Below, in pieces: positions 37,344-45,841 of a stretch of 64,000 nucleotides of DNA. A program made the translations under genes and the position numbers. The DNA comes from an uncultured SAR86 cluster bacterium (GTDB lineage Bacteria; Pseudomonadota; Gammaproteobacteria; Magnimaribacterales; D2472). Each line of letters starts with the position of its first letter. Within the stretch, counting starts at the first letter, position 1. The stretch lies in contig CABYCI010000001.1 in the NCBI GenBank assembly GCA_902517425.1, positions 42,620-106,619 of the forward strand, in the 5' to 3' direction. The notes under the pieces were generated by a model. That model did no database searches and was not told the origin of the DNA. It worked only from the letters and a program-made list of their open reading frames with translations.

Positions 37344-38540
37344 TTACTTTTTATAATTTGCAGCTTCTTCAGATCCGTCAGTAGCTGTACCTTTTGTGTA
37401 TGAATGAGCCCCCATGCCAGCTAAATCACCATTTTGCACTATCAAATATGGCTCTCTTATTGGTTTGTTATCAAAGAAACATTCAAGAATCTCTCTAACA
37501 CCTGCAGCATATCTGGTTTGCGCAGAAAGAGATGTTCCTGATGTATGAGGTGTCATTCCATGATTTGGCATTGTTCTCCATACATGATCATTTGGAGCAG
37601 GTTGCGGAAACCATACATCTCCAGCATAACCACTTAATTGGCCGGACTCTAGACCTCGAGCAATAGCATCCTTGTCACAAATTTTTCCTCGAGCAGTATT
37701 AACAATATAGGCACCACGTTTCATCTTATTAATCATCTCATCATTAAATAAATGTTCAGTTTTTGGATGAAGTGGACAACTTATGTTGACTACATCACAA
37801 ACAGCAACCAAAGATTCAACGGAATCATGATAAGTAAGATTTAGTTCTGCCTCTACTTCATCTGAAAGTTTATGAATATCAAAATAATGAAGATGAACAT
37901 CAAAAGGCTTCATTTTTCTTAACATATCAATACCAATTCTTCCTGCAGCTACTGTACCAACATGCATGCCCTCAACATCGTATGATCTTTGCACAGCGTC
38001 AGCTATATTCCATCCACCCTCTTTTACTATTCTGTGCTGATTGTGATAGTCCCTTACCATTGAAAGAATCATCATTACGATATGCTCAGCAACAGATCTC
38101 GAATTACAATAAGTAACTTCAACGACATCAACATTGTTATCCATAGCAGCTTGTAAATCTACGTGATCTGATCCGATGCCTGCAGTAATAGCCATTTTTA
38201 GGTTTGGAGCAGATTCCATTTTTTCTCTAGTTAAGTAGTATGGAAAGAATGGTTGAGATATAACAATATCTGCATCAACAAGTTCCTTATCCGCGTCACA
38301 CCCATCACCATCTTTGTCAGAGGTTACAACAAGAGTATGTCCAGCATCTTCAAGAAATTTTCTTAATCCTAATTCACCTGAAACACATCCCAAGAGTTCA
38401 CCAGGTGTAAAATCAACAGAACTAGGTGAAGGCAAGGTCATTCCGTCAGGATATTTATCTAGTTTGGGTAAACCATCACGGGCATATTGACTTGGCATCC
38501 CATTAATCGGATCGTCATAAAGTATACATAATATTTTCAT
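37344..38540 (-). CDS. fdh: NAD+-dependent formate dehydrogenase
   Basis: The sequence is colinear with Pseudomonas sp. 101 FDH as I recall it: MKILCILYDDP..G.P..YARD.LPK.D.YP.G.TLP.P, TAGIGSDHVDL, EVTYCNS.SVAEH, GTVAAGRIG, VNTARGK and PHTSGT.L.AQ.RYAAG..EIL. Size is 398 aa. Confidence 0.95.
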   Translation of the reverse strand: MKILCILYDDPINGMPSQYARDGLPKLDKYPDGMTLPSPSSVDFTPGELLGCVSGELGLRKFLEDAGHTLVVTSDKDGDGCDADKELVDADIVISQPFFPYYLTREKMESAPNLKMAITAGIGSDHVDLQAAMDNNVDVVEVTYCNSRSVAEHIVMMILSMVRDYHNQHRIVKEGGWNIADAVQRSYDVEGMHVGTVAAGRIGIDMLRKMKPFDVHLHYFDIHKLSDEVEAELNLTYHDSVESLVAVCDVVNISCPLHPKTEHLFNDEMINKMKRGAYIVNTARGKICDKDAIARGLESGQLSGYAGDVWFPQPAPNDHVWRTMPNHGMTPHTSGTSLSAQTRYAAGVREILECFFDNKPIREPYLIVQNGDLAGMGAHSYTKGTATDGSEEAANYKK

Positions 38541-38682
38541 TTAAATTCCCCTTTGAATATTTAACCAATCAATGGTAAATCAAAAAAAATTAAACACAAC
38601 AAATAATTAAATAAATACAATAAATCAAAATAAATAGAATTTAATTAAATCTTCATAAAAATTGTAGAATTATTAAAAAACC

Positions 38683-38783
38683 ATGAGTACAATAGTATTT
38701 ATGAGTACAAAATCATAAATATGAGTACATAAATTTGCAAAAAAAAATAAAAACATATAAAATTATGAGTACATATGAGTACA
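38683..38783 (+). repeat. Five exact direct copies of the 9-mer ATGAGTACA
   Basis: The copies start at 38683, 38701, 38721, 38765 and 38775, giving spacings of 18, 20, 44 and 10 bp. The last copy supplies the ATG of ORF 38775..39263. The array lies in the fdh / ORF divergent intergenic region. Confidence 0.9.
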
Positions 38784-39263
38784 ATTAATGATAAATATCT
38801 TGTATTAAGAGGTAAAAATAAAGATATCTATTTTATACAGAAAAGGCTATCAAAAGAAGCTGCAGCTATATTTGGTAAAGGTTTTATTAAAAAATCATTG
38901 GAAACTACTGATATTCAGGTTGCTAGAGCAAAAAGAGATAAAATTCTGCATAATATCGATGAAATGATAAGAAATAACGCTGTGAATAATGGCTTAAATA
39001 ACGATAATTCTAAAGATTTTACTCAAAATAAGGAATTTGAAACCAAATCGGTTAATAAATCGTTAGAATCTAAAAATATGTATGTACCCATAAAAGATTT
39101 TGCAGATTCAAATGCACAAGAGTACAGTAAAAATAATGATTTTAACTTTTTTTCTATTAAAATACCTAAACTTCCAAAAAAAGAGGAGATTATTATGAAG
39201 ATTGATGGATTTATACCAATAGCTATATTGATTCTTACTTTATTTATTGCCTTTATTGTCTAA
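38775..39263 (+). CDS. Hypothetical protein: integrase-arm-like N-terminal domain, low-complexity linker, C-terminal hydrophobic helix; possibly an integrase remnant
   Basis: Residues about 8-65 (YLVLRGKNKDIYFIQKRLSKEAAAIFGKGFIKKSLETTDIQVARAKRDKILHNIDEMI) fit the pattern YYFR.RVP..L....GK.EI..SL.T.D...A seen at the N-terminus of many tyrosine integrases. No catalytic R..HxxR..Y region follows. The C-terminus is IPIAILILTLFIAFIV. The 3' end overlaps the convergent kinase gene by 24 bp. Confidence 0.35.
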   Translation: MSTINDKYLVLRGKNKDIYFIQKRLSKEAAAIFGKGFIKKSLETTDIQVARAKRDKILHNIDEMIRNNAVNNGLNNDNSKDFTQNKEFETKSVNKSLESKNMYVPIKDFADSNAQEYSKNNDFNFFSIKIPKLPKKEEIIMKIDGFIPIAILILTLFIAFIV

Positions 39264-40112
39264 TTTAAGCTCTAAATTACTTATAAAATCTTCTTTTATT
39301 GATCCTTTATGTATTTTATTTATAACATAAGCCCAAATTAAATCTAAATATGAGTTCATAAGCCTCCAGTCATTAATATTATCAATAACTTTTGAATCAT
39401 TTTTAATACCATAAGATCTTATTAAAATATTAATTTCTTGTCCTTTAAGGTTAAAAGATTCTACTATTCTAGAAATGTCACAAAATCTACTATTCATCCC
39501 AGAATATTCAAAATCTATAAAGCACATATCTTTTCCACTACACAATATATTAGTGGCATTCAAATCATTGTGTGAAAATATTTTCTCGCCCTTTTCATAT
39601 AATTCTATTTTTTTAAATAGATAATTTATTTCTTCTACATATTTATTTTTCTTATTAGATATTAAAATTTTATTATATGCAGATAGTTGATCTTCAAATG
39701 TTTTAATATTTTTATTTGGTTTAATTGAATGTAAATTGCTAAGAGAAATTCCTATTAATTCTATTAACTTGTTTCTTCTTAATTTAAGATTATTTTCTTC
39801 AAAATATTTATAAATTAAGACTCCTTCTTTTTTATTATAGTAAGTAACCTCTGGAAATAATTTTTTCACTACCATCTGGTCTTGAATTGAATTGATTAAA
39901 AATTGGTTGGTAATTAATTTATTTTTTTGATTTTGTTTTTTAAATACTTTAATTATTGATTTATCTTTTTTATATTTAGCTAAATAGGTATTAGCTGTGA
40001 TGCCACTTCTGACTTTGTTTAGTATTACAAACTTTACCTTAGAACTTTTAAGGACTTCATCAATTTCAGTCATATTTTTCGCGTAGATTTTTTTTCCAAG
40101 AGATATATCCAA
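39240..40112 (-). CDS. Choline/APH-fold small-molecule kinase, predicted thiamine kinase by context
   Basis: The Brenner motif is HNDLNATNIL, followed by FIDFEYSGMNSRFCDI (the choline/thiamine kinase D.EY motif). It is the last gene of a TPP-riboswitch operon. The real start may be ATG 40073 (MTEIDEVLK), which would reduce the overlap with the pnuC-family gene to 8 bp. Confidence 0.7.
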   Translation of the reverse strand: MDISLGKKIYAKNMTEIDEVLKSSKVKFVILNKVRSGITANTYLAKYKKDKSIIKVFKKQNQKNKLITNQFLINSIQDQMVVKKLFPEVTYYNKKEGVLIYKYFEENNLKLRRNKLIELIGISLSNLHSIKPNKNIKTFEDQLSAYNKILISNKKNKYVEEINYLFKKIELYEKGEKIFSHNDLNATNILCSGKDMCFIDFEYSGMNSRFCDISRIVESFNLKGQEINILIRSYGIKNDSKVIDNINDWRLMNSYLDLIWAYVINKIHKGSIKEDFISNLELKLDNKGNK

Positions 40113-40641: not shown

Positions 40642-42735
40642 TTAAAATTTATATCTTATAGTAAAGCCAATGTTTCTAGGATCTCCCTGTCTTTTATATA
40701 GAGTTTCAGTAAAATCTGGGGCCTCGTTTCCAAAGAAAAAACCTCTAGTTGAATAGTATTTATCAAAAATATTTCTTACCCAAAACTCTGCAGATAAATT
40801 AGCTTTTGAATATCCTATCGTTGCATTAAGCAGTTGGTATTTTTTAGATTTATTATCATGAGAATCAGAGTAATAGAAACTACTTTTACCATTAAAATCA
40901 ATTTTTACATATAGATTATTTTTTAAATCTAAGTTAGCTCCAACTGCATATGTCTTTTCAGGAGCGTGTGCTTGAGCTCTATTCTGAAGATCAGTTCTAG
41001 ACTCCCAATTTTTGATTTTAGTTTTTAAGATACCTAAATTGGCAAATAAATTTAAGTTATTATTTAAAGAATAATTTGAGTCGATTTCTAATCCATAATT
41101 TTCTCCCTCAGCAGCATTTTGAGTTAAGAAAGAAAAAGTATTTGGATCAGTTGGATCTACTTGCTTTGATATTAAAACTTGTTGATCTTCTCTCTTTGAG
41201 AAAAATATAACTAAAGAATAATTTAAATCTGTCATATTTGAATTAATTCCAATCTCGTAGTTTGTTAAAAATTCTGGGTCATACAAAAGAGAATCTTTAT
41301 TTGAATTATCAGTAGCATCAAGTCCAAGATTGAATCCACCTTGTTTATATCCCCGAGCGATTGAGACATAAATATTTGAGTTATTTTTATTATTTTTAAT
41401 TAATGAAATCTTTCCTCCGTTCATATTATCTGACGGATTAAAAGATTCATTATTTGAATCCTTGTATTTCGATTCCCAAGTCTCATATCTCAATCCAAAA
41501 GCAATCTTATAATTATCTGATAAAAAATAATCAAAATTTCCAAATATTGATACGTTTTCAGAATCATAATTTCTTGAAACTATTGTTTCACTTACATATG
41601 GGCCATAGGGATCAGATGGATCACCATAAATTCCATCATCTTTGGTTATATTTGTTTCTTCCAGTTCACTAAAATTAAAACCAAAAATCCATTCAAATGG
41701 GTTATTTTTAGAAAAATCAGTATTTTTTGATAAAATACGTAATTCTTGGTTAAAAGTATCTCTTTTTCGTAGTGTTTCTGAAAAATAATCATATGTATAA
41801 GGGAAATGAGAGTCATAATTTCCCCAATCTGCATCATAACTAAAAATAATGTCGGTTTTGGTGGAACTTGTTATGCTTTGAAGTTCAAAATTAACAAAAT
41901 TCTTAGAAATTTTTACTTTAAATGAATCAGTATTTTGAGAATCCATCCCTGGACGATCTGATAGCGTATTTAGACTACCATCAATAGTCCAAATATCAGC
42001 CGGGTCGTCCATATCAATTTTTGAAATTAGAAAATCTATATTTGTAGTTTCATTAAACTCCCAATTTAATTTATATCGCAATGTCAGTTCATCTTTTTTT
42101 GAAGTATCTGATTTATTTAGGTAAATATTTTTTCTAAAGCCATCTGCATAATCAGTTCTGAAAACAACACGATATTTTAATTTTTTATTTTTCATTGGTC
42201 CGCCAAATGCAACGCCTATATTTTGTGTTCCATAATCACCAATAGTTAATTCAGAAGTGCCTTCAAATTTATCAGTTGGTTCTTTAGTTTTAATATAAAT
42301 TAATCCTGCAAGAGCATTTGCACCTGCTCGTGAACCTTGCGGCCCTCGATAAACCTCAACCTGATCAACATCAAATAGAGTTGCAATTCCACCTTGTCCA
42401 GAATAATCAATATCATCTATTAAAAATCCAACAGAAGAGTTGGGTGTTCCTTGGTAGCCAGATCTCTCTCCGATTCCACGAATCTGAAAATATCTTGCTC
42501 TAGAATCTGAAGCAGCATAATTTAGATTAGGTACAAGGTATGAGAGCTGTTGAAAATGTTTTATTGCTTGCGACTCAATTTTTTTTGACTGAATAATTGT
42601 GATACTTGAATCTTCTTCATTGATAGGTTTTTCTCTGTATTCTCCTTTAACGATGATCTCTTCTACATCTTGTGAAAAAATAGAAATAGAAAATAATATT
42701 GGTAAAAGAAATAAAAAAAATTTTCTGATATACAT
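40642..42735 (-). CDS. TonB-dependent outer-membrane receptor
   Basis: Signal peptide MYIRKFFLFLLPILFSISIFSQ, the plug block VEVYRGPQGSRAGANALAGLIYIKTKEP, and a beta-barrel ending in IGFTIRYKF with a terminal Phe. The start is moved from 42774 to ATG 42735, because the 13 extra codons lie inside the riboswitch. Confidence 0.9.
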   Translation of the reverse strand: MYIRKFFLFLLPILFSISIFSQDVEEIIVKGEYREKPINEEDSSITIIQSKKIESQAIKHFQQLSYLVPNLNYAASDSRARYFQIRGIGERSGYQGTPNSSVGFLIDDIDYSGQGGIATLFDVDQVEVYRGPQGSRAGANALAGLIYIKTKEPTDKFEGTSELTIGDYGTQNIGVAFGGPMKNKKLKYRVVFRTDYADGFRKNIYLNKSDTSKKDELTLRYKLNWEFNETTNIDFLISKIDMDDPADIWTIDGSLNTLSDRPGMDSQNTDSFKVKISKNFVNFELQSITSSTKTDIIFSYDADWGNYDSHFPYTYDYFSETLRKRDTFNQELRILSKNTDFSKNNPFEWIFGFNFSELEETNITKDDGIYGDPSDPYGPYVSETIVSRNYDSENVSIFGNFDYFLSDNYKIAFGLRYETWESKYKDSNNESFNPSDNMNGGKISLIKNNKNNSNIYVSIARGYKQGGFNLGLDATDNSNKDSLLYDPEFLTNYEIGINSNMTDLNYSLVIFFSKREDQQVLISKQVDPTDPNTFSFLTQNAAEGENYGLEIDSNYSLNNNLNLFANLGILKTKIKNWESRTDLQNRAQAHAPEKTYAVGANLDLKNNLYVKIDFNGKSSFYYSDSHDNKSKKYQLLNATIGYSKANLSAEFWVRNIFDKYYSTRGFFFGNEAPDFTETLYKRQGDPRNIGFTIRYKF

Positions 42736-42817
42736 ATGCAATTCCTCCGCAACTATTGTGTTGATCAGGTTCAAAGAGTTTCCTAAGATCTCAGACTTTC
42801 AAGCCACCCCTTTGCAT
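42736..42817 (-). promoter_or_regulatory. TPP (THI-box) riboswitch
   Basis: The minus-strand RNA reads AUGCAA-A-GGGGUGG-CUUGAAAGU-CUGAGA-UCUUAGGAAACUCUUUGAACCUGAUC-AACACAAUAGUU-GCGGAGGAA-UUGCAU-AUG. It contains the conserved GGGGUG, CUGAGA, ACCUGAUC and GCG.AGGAA elements and a P5-like hairpin CAAC/GUUG. A 6-bp P1 (AUGCAA/UUGCAU) has its 3' strand abutting the start codon, and the SD GGAGG lies inside the aptamer. Confidence 0.8.
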
Positions 42818-42910
42818 CTAAAGCTTATATTAATAGATATTCATTTAATTTAGTAGTGTTGATTTTAAATAAATTCTGGGTATATATGATAATATATTTA
42901 GTACCGCATA

Positions 42911-45762: not shown

Positions 45763-45841
45763 GGGCCTGTAGCTCAGTTTTGGTTAGAGCGTTCGACTGA
45801 TAATCGAGAGGTCGGAAGTTCGAGTCTTCCCAGGCCCACCA
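45763..45841 (+). tRNA. tRNA-Ile (anticodon GAU), CCA encoded
   Basis: Hand-folded cloverleaf. Acceptor stem is GGGCCTG/CAGGCCC. D arm is GCTC-AGTTTTGGTTA-GAGC. Anticodon arm is TTCGA-CTGATAA-TCGAG, with GAT at 45799-45801. Variable loop is AGGTC and the T arm is GGAAG-TTCGAGT-CTTCC, followed by discriminator A and CCA. Confidence 0.93.

Follow-up and report, generated by a model that had tools for sequence, protein, structure and literature searches.

The arm-binding domains of the heterobivalent integrases of lambda and Tn916 are built of three beta strands followed by a helix. A reuse of small DNA-binding domains from mobile elements is seen in the AP2-integrase superfamily of plants and Apicomplexa, where beta-sheet domains associated with integrases and HNH proteins were exapted as transcription factors and reused as stand-alone sequence-specific regulators. 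For the integrase IntS of KplE1, the P' arm-type sites overlap the intS promoter and the integrase represses its own gene, and this layout of P' sites over the int promoter has been reported for 61.5% of the tRNA-associated int genes (PMC2951348). The current study deals with a locus on a 64-kb stretch of DNA from an uncultured SAR86 cluster bacterium (contig CABYCI010000001.1; 64,000 nucleotides [nt], here called the window), in which a small open reading frame (ORF) of 162 amino acids (aa) begins within an array of the 9-mer ATGAGTACA. We consider it probable that this ORF encodes the exapted, tail-anchored arm domain of a tyrosine integrase, which has been kept together with its arm-site array as an operator and likely represses its own gene.

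Five exact copies of ATGAGTACA are located on the + strand around the start of the small ORF (Table 1), and no further copy was found on either strand of the window. In 100 dinucleotide-preserving shuffles, the mean number of copies was 0.54 and the maximum was 3; five copies were never reached (0/100), and the repeat is therefore real and non-random. A first-pass annotation of this DNA, made from the letters alone, had described such a five-copy array between the formate dehydrogenase-like gene fdh and the small ORF, with the last repeat serving as start codon. All positions matched, the array indeed lies between both genes, and the fifth copy comprises the ATG together with codons 2 and 3.

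The gene was detected in 47 genomes in a scan of one genome per species; 38 of them are titled SAR86, and of the remainder, one short contig bears the label Pelagibacterales and all others Gammaproteobacteria. The gene is present once per locus, and the 47 species-level genomes plus the window form the set of 48 SAR86 loci referred to below. In all 48, two to six copies of (A/G/T)TG(A/G/C)GTACA are present at fixed positions within 160 nt upstream of the small gene, and the array is thus conserved in related genomes. Counted from the start codon, the copies are placed at -92, -74, (-54), -11, and 0 in the window's group, at -82, -63, -11, and 0 in a second group, and at -116, -96, -76, -32/-34, (-11), and 0 in the most divergent group. 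A copy at 0 is found in 47 of the 48 loci, one at -11 or -10 in about 43, and one at -92 or -93 in most loci of group A. The extended logo of 198 sites reads T-[A180 G14 T4]-T-G-[A129 G62 C6 T1]-G-T-A-C-A-W-W, and the functional motif is longer than the 9-mer and degenerate, i.e., T-[A>G>T]TG[A>G>C]GTACA-W-W. Spacings between the sites cluster at 11, 18-21, 29-32, 39-44, 52-53, and 61-63 bp, near multiples of about 10.5 bp, and such whole helical turns fit with proteins that occupy one side of the double helix. Interpretation of the window's 10-bp tandem as an NtcA/CRP-like GTA-N8-TAC site was rejected because the spacing is 11 bp in most loci.

The translated copies reveal that the sites are under selection at the nucleotide level. 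Codon 2 is AGT in 46 of the 48 loci and GGT in the remaining two, a change at the motif's own degenerate position, and codon 3 is ACA in 47; codons 2 and 3 are without synonymous variation, whereas Ser26 uses TCT, TCA, and TCG. Internal copies in the near-neutral linker of the protein occur in 35 of the 48 loci and amount to 65 in total, compared with 1.4 expected from shuffles (maximum 6). They are found in both orientations and in differing reading frames, and the residues specified are Met-Ser/Gly-Thr for direct copies in frame 0, Tyr-Glu-Tyr or Asp-Gly-Tyr for direct copies in frame 1, and Val-Pro-Ile/Met for inverted copies. Since the motif is retained whatever the frame and strand, it has been selected as DNA or RNA and not as peptide. 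The inverted copy of the window codes for the conserved Val104-Pro105-Ile106 island of the linker, and at the position homologous to the degenerate internal copy, an exact ATGAGTACA encoding Tyr-Glu-Tyr is present in L003, L013, L006, L015, and L016. Beyond the upstream regions, full motif matches are rare in approximately 554 kb of sampled SAR86 DNA, with the exception of the ORF interior and a further array in L034 and L035. The latter (L034 7254-7310; L035 at about +1217 to +1257 from the gene start) consists of three copies with spacings of 21 and 11 and precedes a short truncated ORF, MSTNFYKTLVNRLFKHI*, that is similar to the N-terminal end of the family proteins. This may be a duplicate, cut short, of the 5' end of the gene or a second target upstream of a secreted-protein gene.

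The 162-aa protein belongs to a large family. A search of 5.8 billion proteins yielded 1,538 homologues with 46-93% identity, nearly all of them full length and 146-200 aa long, whose alignment comprises four parts: 55 almost invariant N-terminal residues, an Asn/Lys-rich linker that varies in length and sequence, the conserved juxtamembrane motif FSLKxPKxPxK..LIxKID, and a conserved hydrophobic C-terminus. In pairwise comparisons, the N-domain has a dN/dS of 0.145 and is under purifying selection, and the linker, at 0.96, evolves almost neutrally. Family conservation, the single-copy spread over SAR86, and the dN/dS of the N-domain practically rule out a decaying pseudogene, and the GC content of the window (about 0.31) is in keeping with SAR86. 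No family for the small ORF was found in NCBIfam, PHROGs, or PADLOC, and the literature on DUF6538 and on bacterial tail-anchored DNA-binding regulators yielded no account of the protein.

The N-domain has homologues at the N-termini of complete marine tyrosine integrases. Residues 12-64 of the window protein match the Pfam domain DUF6538 (PF20172) with 23.4 bits (E 4.6e-5; cutoff 27), 59 of 61 family members match it as well (E<0.01, best E 4.2e-8), and a precomputed PF20172 match exists for many homologues; membership in DUF6538 therefore holds for the family and is narrowly missed by the window sequence. Residues 1-70 were compared exhaustively by phmmer with 1.84 billion representatives, which gave 56 proteins; those outside the SAR86 family include P0154 (451 aa; E 7e-10; 47% identity to residues 1-70), P0169 (426 aa), and P0173 (430 aa), the latter two with E values of 3e-5 and 1.5e-4. 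All three are complete integrases that consist of DUF6538, a SAM-like core-binding domain, and the catalytic domain PF00589, and the integrases matched by phmmer score 34.6-41.3 bits against DUF6538. Because these matches are complete integrases with an N-terminal DUF6538, the SAR86 domain is, by sequence comparison, homologous to a domain that occupies the arm-binding position in real integrases. The first-pass comparison of the N-terminus with an integrase arm module is thereby upheld as far as homology to DUF6538 integrases is concerned, with a sub-threshold Pfam score for the window sequence itself. Neither PF00589 nor the SAM-like domain was detected in the small ORF, and a search of the window and of the 47 SAR86 loci (flanks of up to 6 kb per side) gave no homologue of the catalytic domain. 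No sequence match was obtained between DUF6538 and the named Arm-DNA-bind families of Pfam. In a tblastn search of cultured phages with P0154, matches were confined to the SAM-like and catalytic regions, and hence no named phage integrase shares the N-domain. In P0157, P0152, and P0150, the DUF6538 N-domain is joined to a Rieske iron-sulfur domain with a TAT signal (287 and 202 aa) or to a SpoU methylase (194 aa); these proteins may be gene-calling fusions of integrase remnants with neighbor genes, or real fusions.

The related integrases carry 9-mer arrays of the same class as the small SAR86 gene. The integrase closest to the SAR86 domain uses TGGGTACA, with int-proximal copies at -33, -11, and 0. 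The P0154 locus has three motif copies on the int side, the last two of which form an 11-bp tandem at the gene start, and five copies of (A/G/T)TGGGTAC(A/T) further upstream, beyond a GC-richer segment that contains CCCCgtaGGGG. The P0169 locus contains ATGGATACA three times, and in the P0173 locus ATGGCAACA is present in three copies adjoining int and ATGACTACA in four copies on the far side. A metagenome scan with P0154, P0169, and P0173 identified 45 marine loci, and the 35 that contain the int start were examined. Most of these 35 loci exhibit three int-proximal copies of a lineage-specific 9-mer of the form (A/G)TGnnnACA; the variants are TGGGTACA, T(A/G)GGTACA, TGGACACA, TGGCTACA, TGGAAACA, TGACTACA, or TGGCAACA. 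These copies are interleaved with a near-consensus promoter (TTGAC-17-TATAAT), as exemplified by L082, which reads TTGAC-TGTAGGTACA...TATAAT-GTGGGTACA-ttt-TTGGTACA-c-ATG. In those integrase loci that reach far enough, a second array of three to seven copies follows past a conserved segment composed of a terminator-like hairpin and TGGCATCCCGTAGGGGAGCCGATGTC. The integrases of L073 and L074 are 98-99% identical, and a far array is present in one locus and missing from the other, as expected for attP-like and attL-like forms. Read from the sequence, the layout corresponds to the classic order of a P arm, a core region, and a P' arm that contains the int promoter, and the two-sided arrays with this promoter position mean that the 9-mers are best read as the arm-type sites of DUF6538 integrases. 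The first-pass annotation had proposed that the arm module is preceded by direct repeats of the type it recognizes, and the complete DUF6538 integrases with their like 9-mer arrays in a like layout bear this out. The int-proximal layout of SAR86 group B (-32/-34, -11, and 0) even matches that of P0154 (-33, -11, and 0).

Motif and beta-2 strand of the domain seem to covary between lineages: FIQKR and YIQVR pair with GTACA, FIQKR (L096) and FFQMR with CTACA, FVRKR, SVRIR, and FVKKR with ACACA, and YVVKR with AAACA. With about ten lineages, this covariation is suggestive only. The far-side 9-mer is unlike the int-side 9-mer in L075/L076, L084, L098, L100, L104, L106, and L051 (e.g., TGGACACA versus TAGGTACA or TGACTACA versus TGGAAACA), which points to related elements that entered one att site in tandem and whose arm-site specificities have diversified. 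The hairpin aaaaagcccacNNNNgtgggcttctt followed by TGGCATCCCGTAGGGGAGCCGATGTC is conserved across many divergent integrase loci between L073 and L100 and is located about 150-230 nt before the int start in L082. Neither a tRNA (ARAGORN) nor an Rfam family was found in this segment in the four loci tested, and an att core, a small RNA, or a gene end are candidates for its identity.

The core-like segment was found in 27 of the 45 integrase loci and in none of the 48 SAR86 loci, including the window, even when up to six mismatches were allowed, and the window has no second arm array. With neither a core-like segment nor a second array, the SAR86 locus no longer serves as a site of recombination, although it descends from a recombination module; its array derives from an att arm without being part of an att site. 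As in lambda Int, Tn916 Int, and KplE1 IntS, the related full-length integrases have an N-domain of about 60-70 aa before the core-binding and catalytic domains, and like other heterobivalent systems the related elements carry short asymmetric direct-repeat sites on either side of a central region. The SAR86 protein, in contrast, lacks the core-binding and catalytic domains, cannot recombine DNA, and has no att core beside its gene.

The geometry of the predicted promoter is compatible with autoregulation. The -10 element TAAAAT (38758-38763) is predicted between copies 3 and 4 of the array, which would place the transcription start inside copy 4 and leave a leader of a few bases without a Shine-Dalgarno sequence. 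The best-scoring -10 element ends -1 to +3 nt from a motif copy in 41 of the 48 loci, a count biased by the usual T before the motif, and an upstream site ends shortly before the -35 element in many loci (gap values of 4-7, each one above the number of intervening bases). An Rfam search of positions 38000-39600 with lenient thresholds returned chance-level matches only. By prediction, the -35 and -10 elements overlap arm-type sites in the manner of KplE1: as in intS, the promoter elements are interleaved with such sites, the site nearest to the gene overlaps the -10/start region, and the gene product would be the protein that binds them. Unlike the SAR86 protein, the KplE1 product is a working integrase, and the directionality factor TorI is a second repressor there; in SAR86 the arm domain alone remains, no directionality factor is evident, and repression is proposed by analogy.

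AlphaFold2 (AF2) modeling of the full protein with a 61-sequence alignment (mean pLDDT 57.8) predicted strands at residues 6-12, 18-26, and 39-41, a helix at 47-72, disorder from 72 to 134, and a second helix at 136-161 with a pLDDT of 72-87. A domain-only model from a more diverse alignment (pLDDT 71.5) retained the topology of two beta strands, a short helix, a third strand, and a long helix. The domain is thus predicted to resemble the lambda and Tn916 arm-binding domains in having three beta strands and then a helix; it gave no significant match to solved structures, arm-binding domains included. Residues 143-162 (IDGFIPIAILILTLFIAFIV) are hydrophobic and preceded by a Lys-rich sequence, and the protein terminates with this helix. 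According to sequence and model, a single hydrophobic C-terminal helix is present and an N-terminal signal sequence is lacking, and the small protein is accordingly predicted to be a tail-anchored inner-membrane protein with a cytoplasmic N-domain. Since the end of the protein coincides with the helix, there is no extracytoplasmic or sensor domain. This architecture confirms the earlier description of an ORF without catalytic domain that continues into an Asn/Lys-rich linker and a C-terminal hydrophobic helix. ToxR, CadC, and VtrA and the eukaryotic tail-anchored factors of the NAC/SREBP type, the latter released by proteolysis, likewise join a DNA-binding domain at the cytoplasmic N-terminus through a linker to one membrane helix, as predicted for the SAR86 protein. 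The likeness to ToxR and CadC is an analogy only, however, as the OmpR-type winged helix and the periplasmic sensor of the ToxR family are both missing from the SAR86 protein (Pfam; helix-terminated). No bacterial tail-anchored factor with an integrase-type domain was found in the literature searched. The SAR86 case also differs from AP2 in being bacterial and membrane anchored and in keeping the ancestral sites beside the gene, and no link in sequence or structure was detected between AP2 and DUF6538.

We propose that an ancestral SAR86 genome retained the N-terminal arm domain of a DUF6538 integrase together with the int-proximal, P'-like array and the int promoter embedded within it, while the core-binding domain, the catalytic domain, and the att core were lost. 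The surviving domain would then have acquired a disordered linker and a C-terminal membrane anchor. It may bind the 9-bp sites, T(A/G)TG(A/G/C)GTACA, as head-to-tail monomers on one face of the DNA. Occupation of the two promoter-proximal copies, at the predicted transcription start and at the start codon, would block RNA polymerase, so that the gene represses itself and its product is held at a set level. The distal copies and, in most lineages, the intragenic ones would contribute cooperativity or loop formation. With the predicted anchor in the inner membrane, the protein would keep its DNA at the membrane, or the domain would have to be released to act. Of the three readings considered in the first-pass annotation, this proposal comes closest to a domesticated, membrane-tethered regulator of its own promoter, which fits best because gene and array occur together in all 48 loci whatever lies upstream.

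The array might instead be read by a different transcription factor that binds the ATGRGTACA repeats, with the N-domain binding protein or RNA and the gene being a regulated target. DNA binding by the small protein is indeed inferred, fold searches gave no DNA-binding fold, and the window protein stays under the Pfam threshold. On the other hand, 9-mers of this class in this layout accompany complete integrases whose N-domain is homologous, the motif switches between integrase lineages as if each domain reads its own sites, and gene and array are co-inherited in 48 of 48 loci. A host factor would not explain why the motif changes with the integrase lineage, and we regard its involvement as unlikely. 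Similarly improbable is that the array mainly represents a shared operator for the divergent fdh gene and the small protein an fdh regulator. The gene fdh is the divergent upstream neighbor in the window and in about 32 of the 47 loci, and the distal copies are situated some 145-190 bp upstream of its start. The array nevertheless keeps its position beside the small gene where fdh has moved (L003, L013, L022, L039, and L043-L045) or was unmatched in the fetched DNA (L030, L034, L035, L038, and L040-L042), and the fdh-proximal conserved block at 38541-38620 is free of motif copies. Because the array follows the small gene, regulation of fdh cannot be its conserved role, and binding at the fdh upstream region, as envisaged earlier, is not needed to account for it.

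Control at the RNA level, with the AUG repeats as decoy starts or mini-ORFs or with an internal UGUACCCAU that pairs with the start-codon AUGAGUACA and hides the start, could draw on the first bases of the copies (ATG 180, GTG 14, TTG 4, and CTG 0 of 198 sites), on a four-codon ORF (MGTL*) opened by the -11 copy in most loci, whose stop overlaps the main ATG, and on the presence of the inverted copy within the mRNA of most loci. Yet the distal copies are located upstream of the predicted promoter, the mini-ORFs vary in length and sequence between loci, the helically phased spacings indicate DNA, and no Rfam family was matched. Internal copies are missing in 13 of the 48 loci, the direct ones cannot pair with the start, and the inverted one nearly always complements ATGGGTACA, while the start copy is ATGAGTACA, which leaves a central uncompensated A-C mismatch. 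Pairing between start codon and inverted copy was therefore rejected as the main mechanism, and translational control by mini-ORFs, the third of the earlier readings, is very unlikely as the main function given unconserved mini-ORFs and internal copies in both orientations and differing frames. The remaining reading, a functionless, decayed integrase pseudogene whose relic arm sites mark an old island junction, is correct insofar as an origin from an integrase module is well supported; the thiamine operon next to it is AT rich (GC 0.26-0.28 versus about 0.32), and the second truncated copy of L034/L035 resembles a remnant. But the frame is intact and of full length in the loci recovered whole (47 genomes and the window), the family numbers more than 1,500 proteins, purifying selection on the N-domain extends across SAR86, and the C-terminal helix and the juxtamembrane motif are conserved. 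An att-core remnant, a second arm array, and an integrase were all not found in the window, and a mere relic is extremely improbable.

Several observations weigh against the proposed exaptation and self-repression. Binding of DNA by the small protein is deduced from sequence, the DUF6538 score of the window protein is below the gathering cutoff, and the AF2 confidence for the domain is only moderate. Fold searches gave no significant match in the PDB (best E 0.76 and 2.4) or in BFVD (best E 0.18), and a profile search of PDB sequences returned nothing relevant. The promoter was predicted by consensus, and -10-like hexamers are common in DNA with so high an AT content; the preference for T before the motif biases its apparent abutment with the sites. 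Finally, a self-regulating protein without another known target has no obvious purpose, with the inspected DNA amounting to about 4-5% of a SAR86 genome of estimated size, and the membrane anchor of such a protein has no ready explanation in the autoregulation model.

The host-encoded arm domain could also act on mobile elements that share its arm-site code, or tether the chromosomal locus to the membrane, but we consider either role unlikely. Among complete integrases, TGGGTACA is the 9-mer of the closest one and T(A/G)GGTACA that of a large related group, and in both cases the int promoter lies within the sites. If true, a SAR86 protein on these sites could keep islands silent, whether incoming or resident, prevent their integration or excision, or fix their DNA at the membrane, and the domesticated piece of a recombinase would represent an immunity or taming factor and thus a new kind of interaction between host and mobile element. 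Irrespective of this idea, the comparison provides a probable function and the recognition code (A/G)TGnnnACA for DUF6538, a Pfam domain of unknown function, and it defines an uncharacterized family of marine integrases whose int promoter is located inside their own arm sites. The exaptation proposed for SAR86 would be a clean one, in which the DNA-binding arm and its sites persist clade-wide as a gene-plus-operator unit after the loss of the enzyme. SAR86 bacteria are among the most abundant in the ocean, have streamlined genomes, and are resistant to culture; a conserved protein that putatively sits in the membrane and binds DNA sequence-specifically at a known site would give experiments a rare entry to their regulation.

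Table 1. Positions of the motif copies, the small ORF with its parts, and neighboring features in the 64-kb window
Feature	Position	Strand	Remarks
Motif copy 1, distal (ATGAGTACA)	38683..38691	+	92 nt 5' of the start codon; exact match
Motif copy 2, distal	38701..38709	+	At -74; exact match; position kept across loci
Motif copy 3, distal	38721..38729	+	At -54; 5 bases before the predicted -35 hexamer (38735)
Predicted sigma-70-type promoter (TTGCAA, 17-nt spacer, TAAAAT)	38735..38763	+	Consensus scan
Motif copy 4, proximal	38765..38773	+	At -10; one base after the predicted -10; over the predicted transcription start
Motif copy 5, proximal	38775..38783	+	Start codon and codons 2-3 (Met-Ser-Thr)
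Small ORF, 162 aa	38775..39263	+	DUF6538 N-domain, disordered linker, predicted C-terminal tail anchor; SAR86-type family
DUF6538 domain (about residues 5-64)	38787..38966	+	Pfam; phmmer to integrases; AF2 domain model; dN/dS
Asn/Lys-rich linker (residues 73-134)	38991..39176	+	Predicted disorder, pLDDT <50; dN/dS 0.96
Internal inverted copy	39083..39091	-	TGTACCCAT on + strand, ATGGGTACA on - strand
Degenerate internal direct copy (AAGAGTACA)	39118..39126	+	One mismatch; encodes part of Gln-Glu-Tyr-Ser
C-terminal hydrophobic helix (IDGFIPIAILILTLFIAFIV)	39201..39260	+	Predicted tail anchor; AF2; conserved in family
fdh, NAD-dependent formate dehydrogenase-like	37344..38540	-	Divergent neighbor of the small ORF
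TPP riboswitch	42725..42821	-	58.7 bits, above gathering score; upstream of the receptor/PnuC/kinase operon
tRNA-Ile(GAT), lone	45763..45841		

With respect to the genomic neighborhood, the small ORF converges with a - strand operon whose products are a TonB-dependent receptor, a PnuC-type transporter, and a choline-kinase-like kinase. The kinase-like gene (39240-40112, - strand) and the small ORF overlap tail to tail by 24 bp (39240-39263), and the arrangement is conserved, with the kinase-PnuC-receptor operon as convergent downstream neighbor in most SAR86 loci. The TPP riboswitch upstream confirms a thiamine-related uptake operon, and since the listed TTG start of the receptor ORF (42774) falls inside the riboswitch, its true start is probably located further downstream. 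This riboswitch and the tRNA-Ile were the only Rfam matches over the whole window. Motif copies, an integrase, or att-like repeats were not found near the tRNA-Ile, and the region at 42.8-45.9 kb, where the first-pass annotation had suggested looking for a matching core or direct repeat, therefore lends no support to an island junction. On the other side of the array, the block at 38541-38620 directly upstream of the fdh start (...ccccaaatataattaac..ctaatgttaaaacaaaataaattaaacacaacaa, + strand) is conserved in most SAR86 loci with fdh at this place; it matches no Rfam family and is probably the promoter or 5' leader of fdh.

When viral contigs were scanned for the tandem ATGRGTACANNATGRGTACA, 21 loci were obtained, which span a wide range of GC contents and include some with long 11-bp arrays; no DUF6538 domain is encoded in the fetched DNA of these loci. 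The matches were not taken as evidence for or against, as for an 18-base pattern in so large a collection a handful of chance matches was roughly estimated. Perfect 11-bp tandems of ATGAGTACAct are present in ten copies in L062 (8781-8888) and in five copies in L068 (9911-9952), and they may be iterons, binding arrays of an unrelated protein, or coincidence. The 34.5-kb viral contig IMGVR_UViG_3300030330_001107 carries ATGGGTACAaaATGAGTACA at both ends (L058, L060, and L066), about 70-80 nt from an apparent tRNA 3' end on the opposite strand (…ggtgacccctacgggattcgaaccc…), and these ends could be a terminal repeat or an att-type junction of a low-GC element with a similar site.

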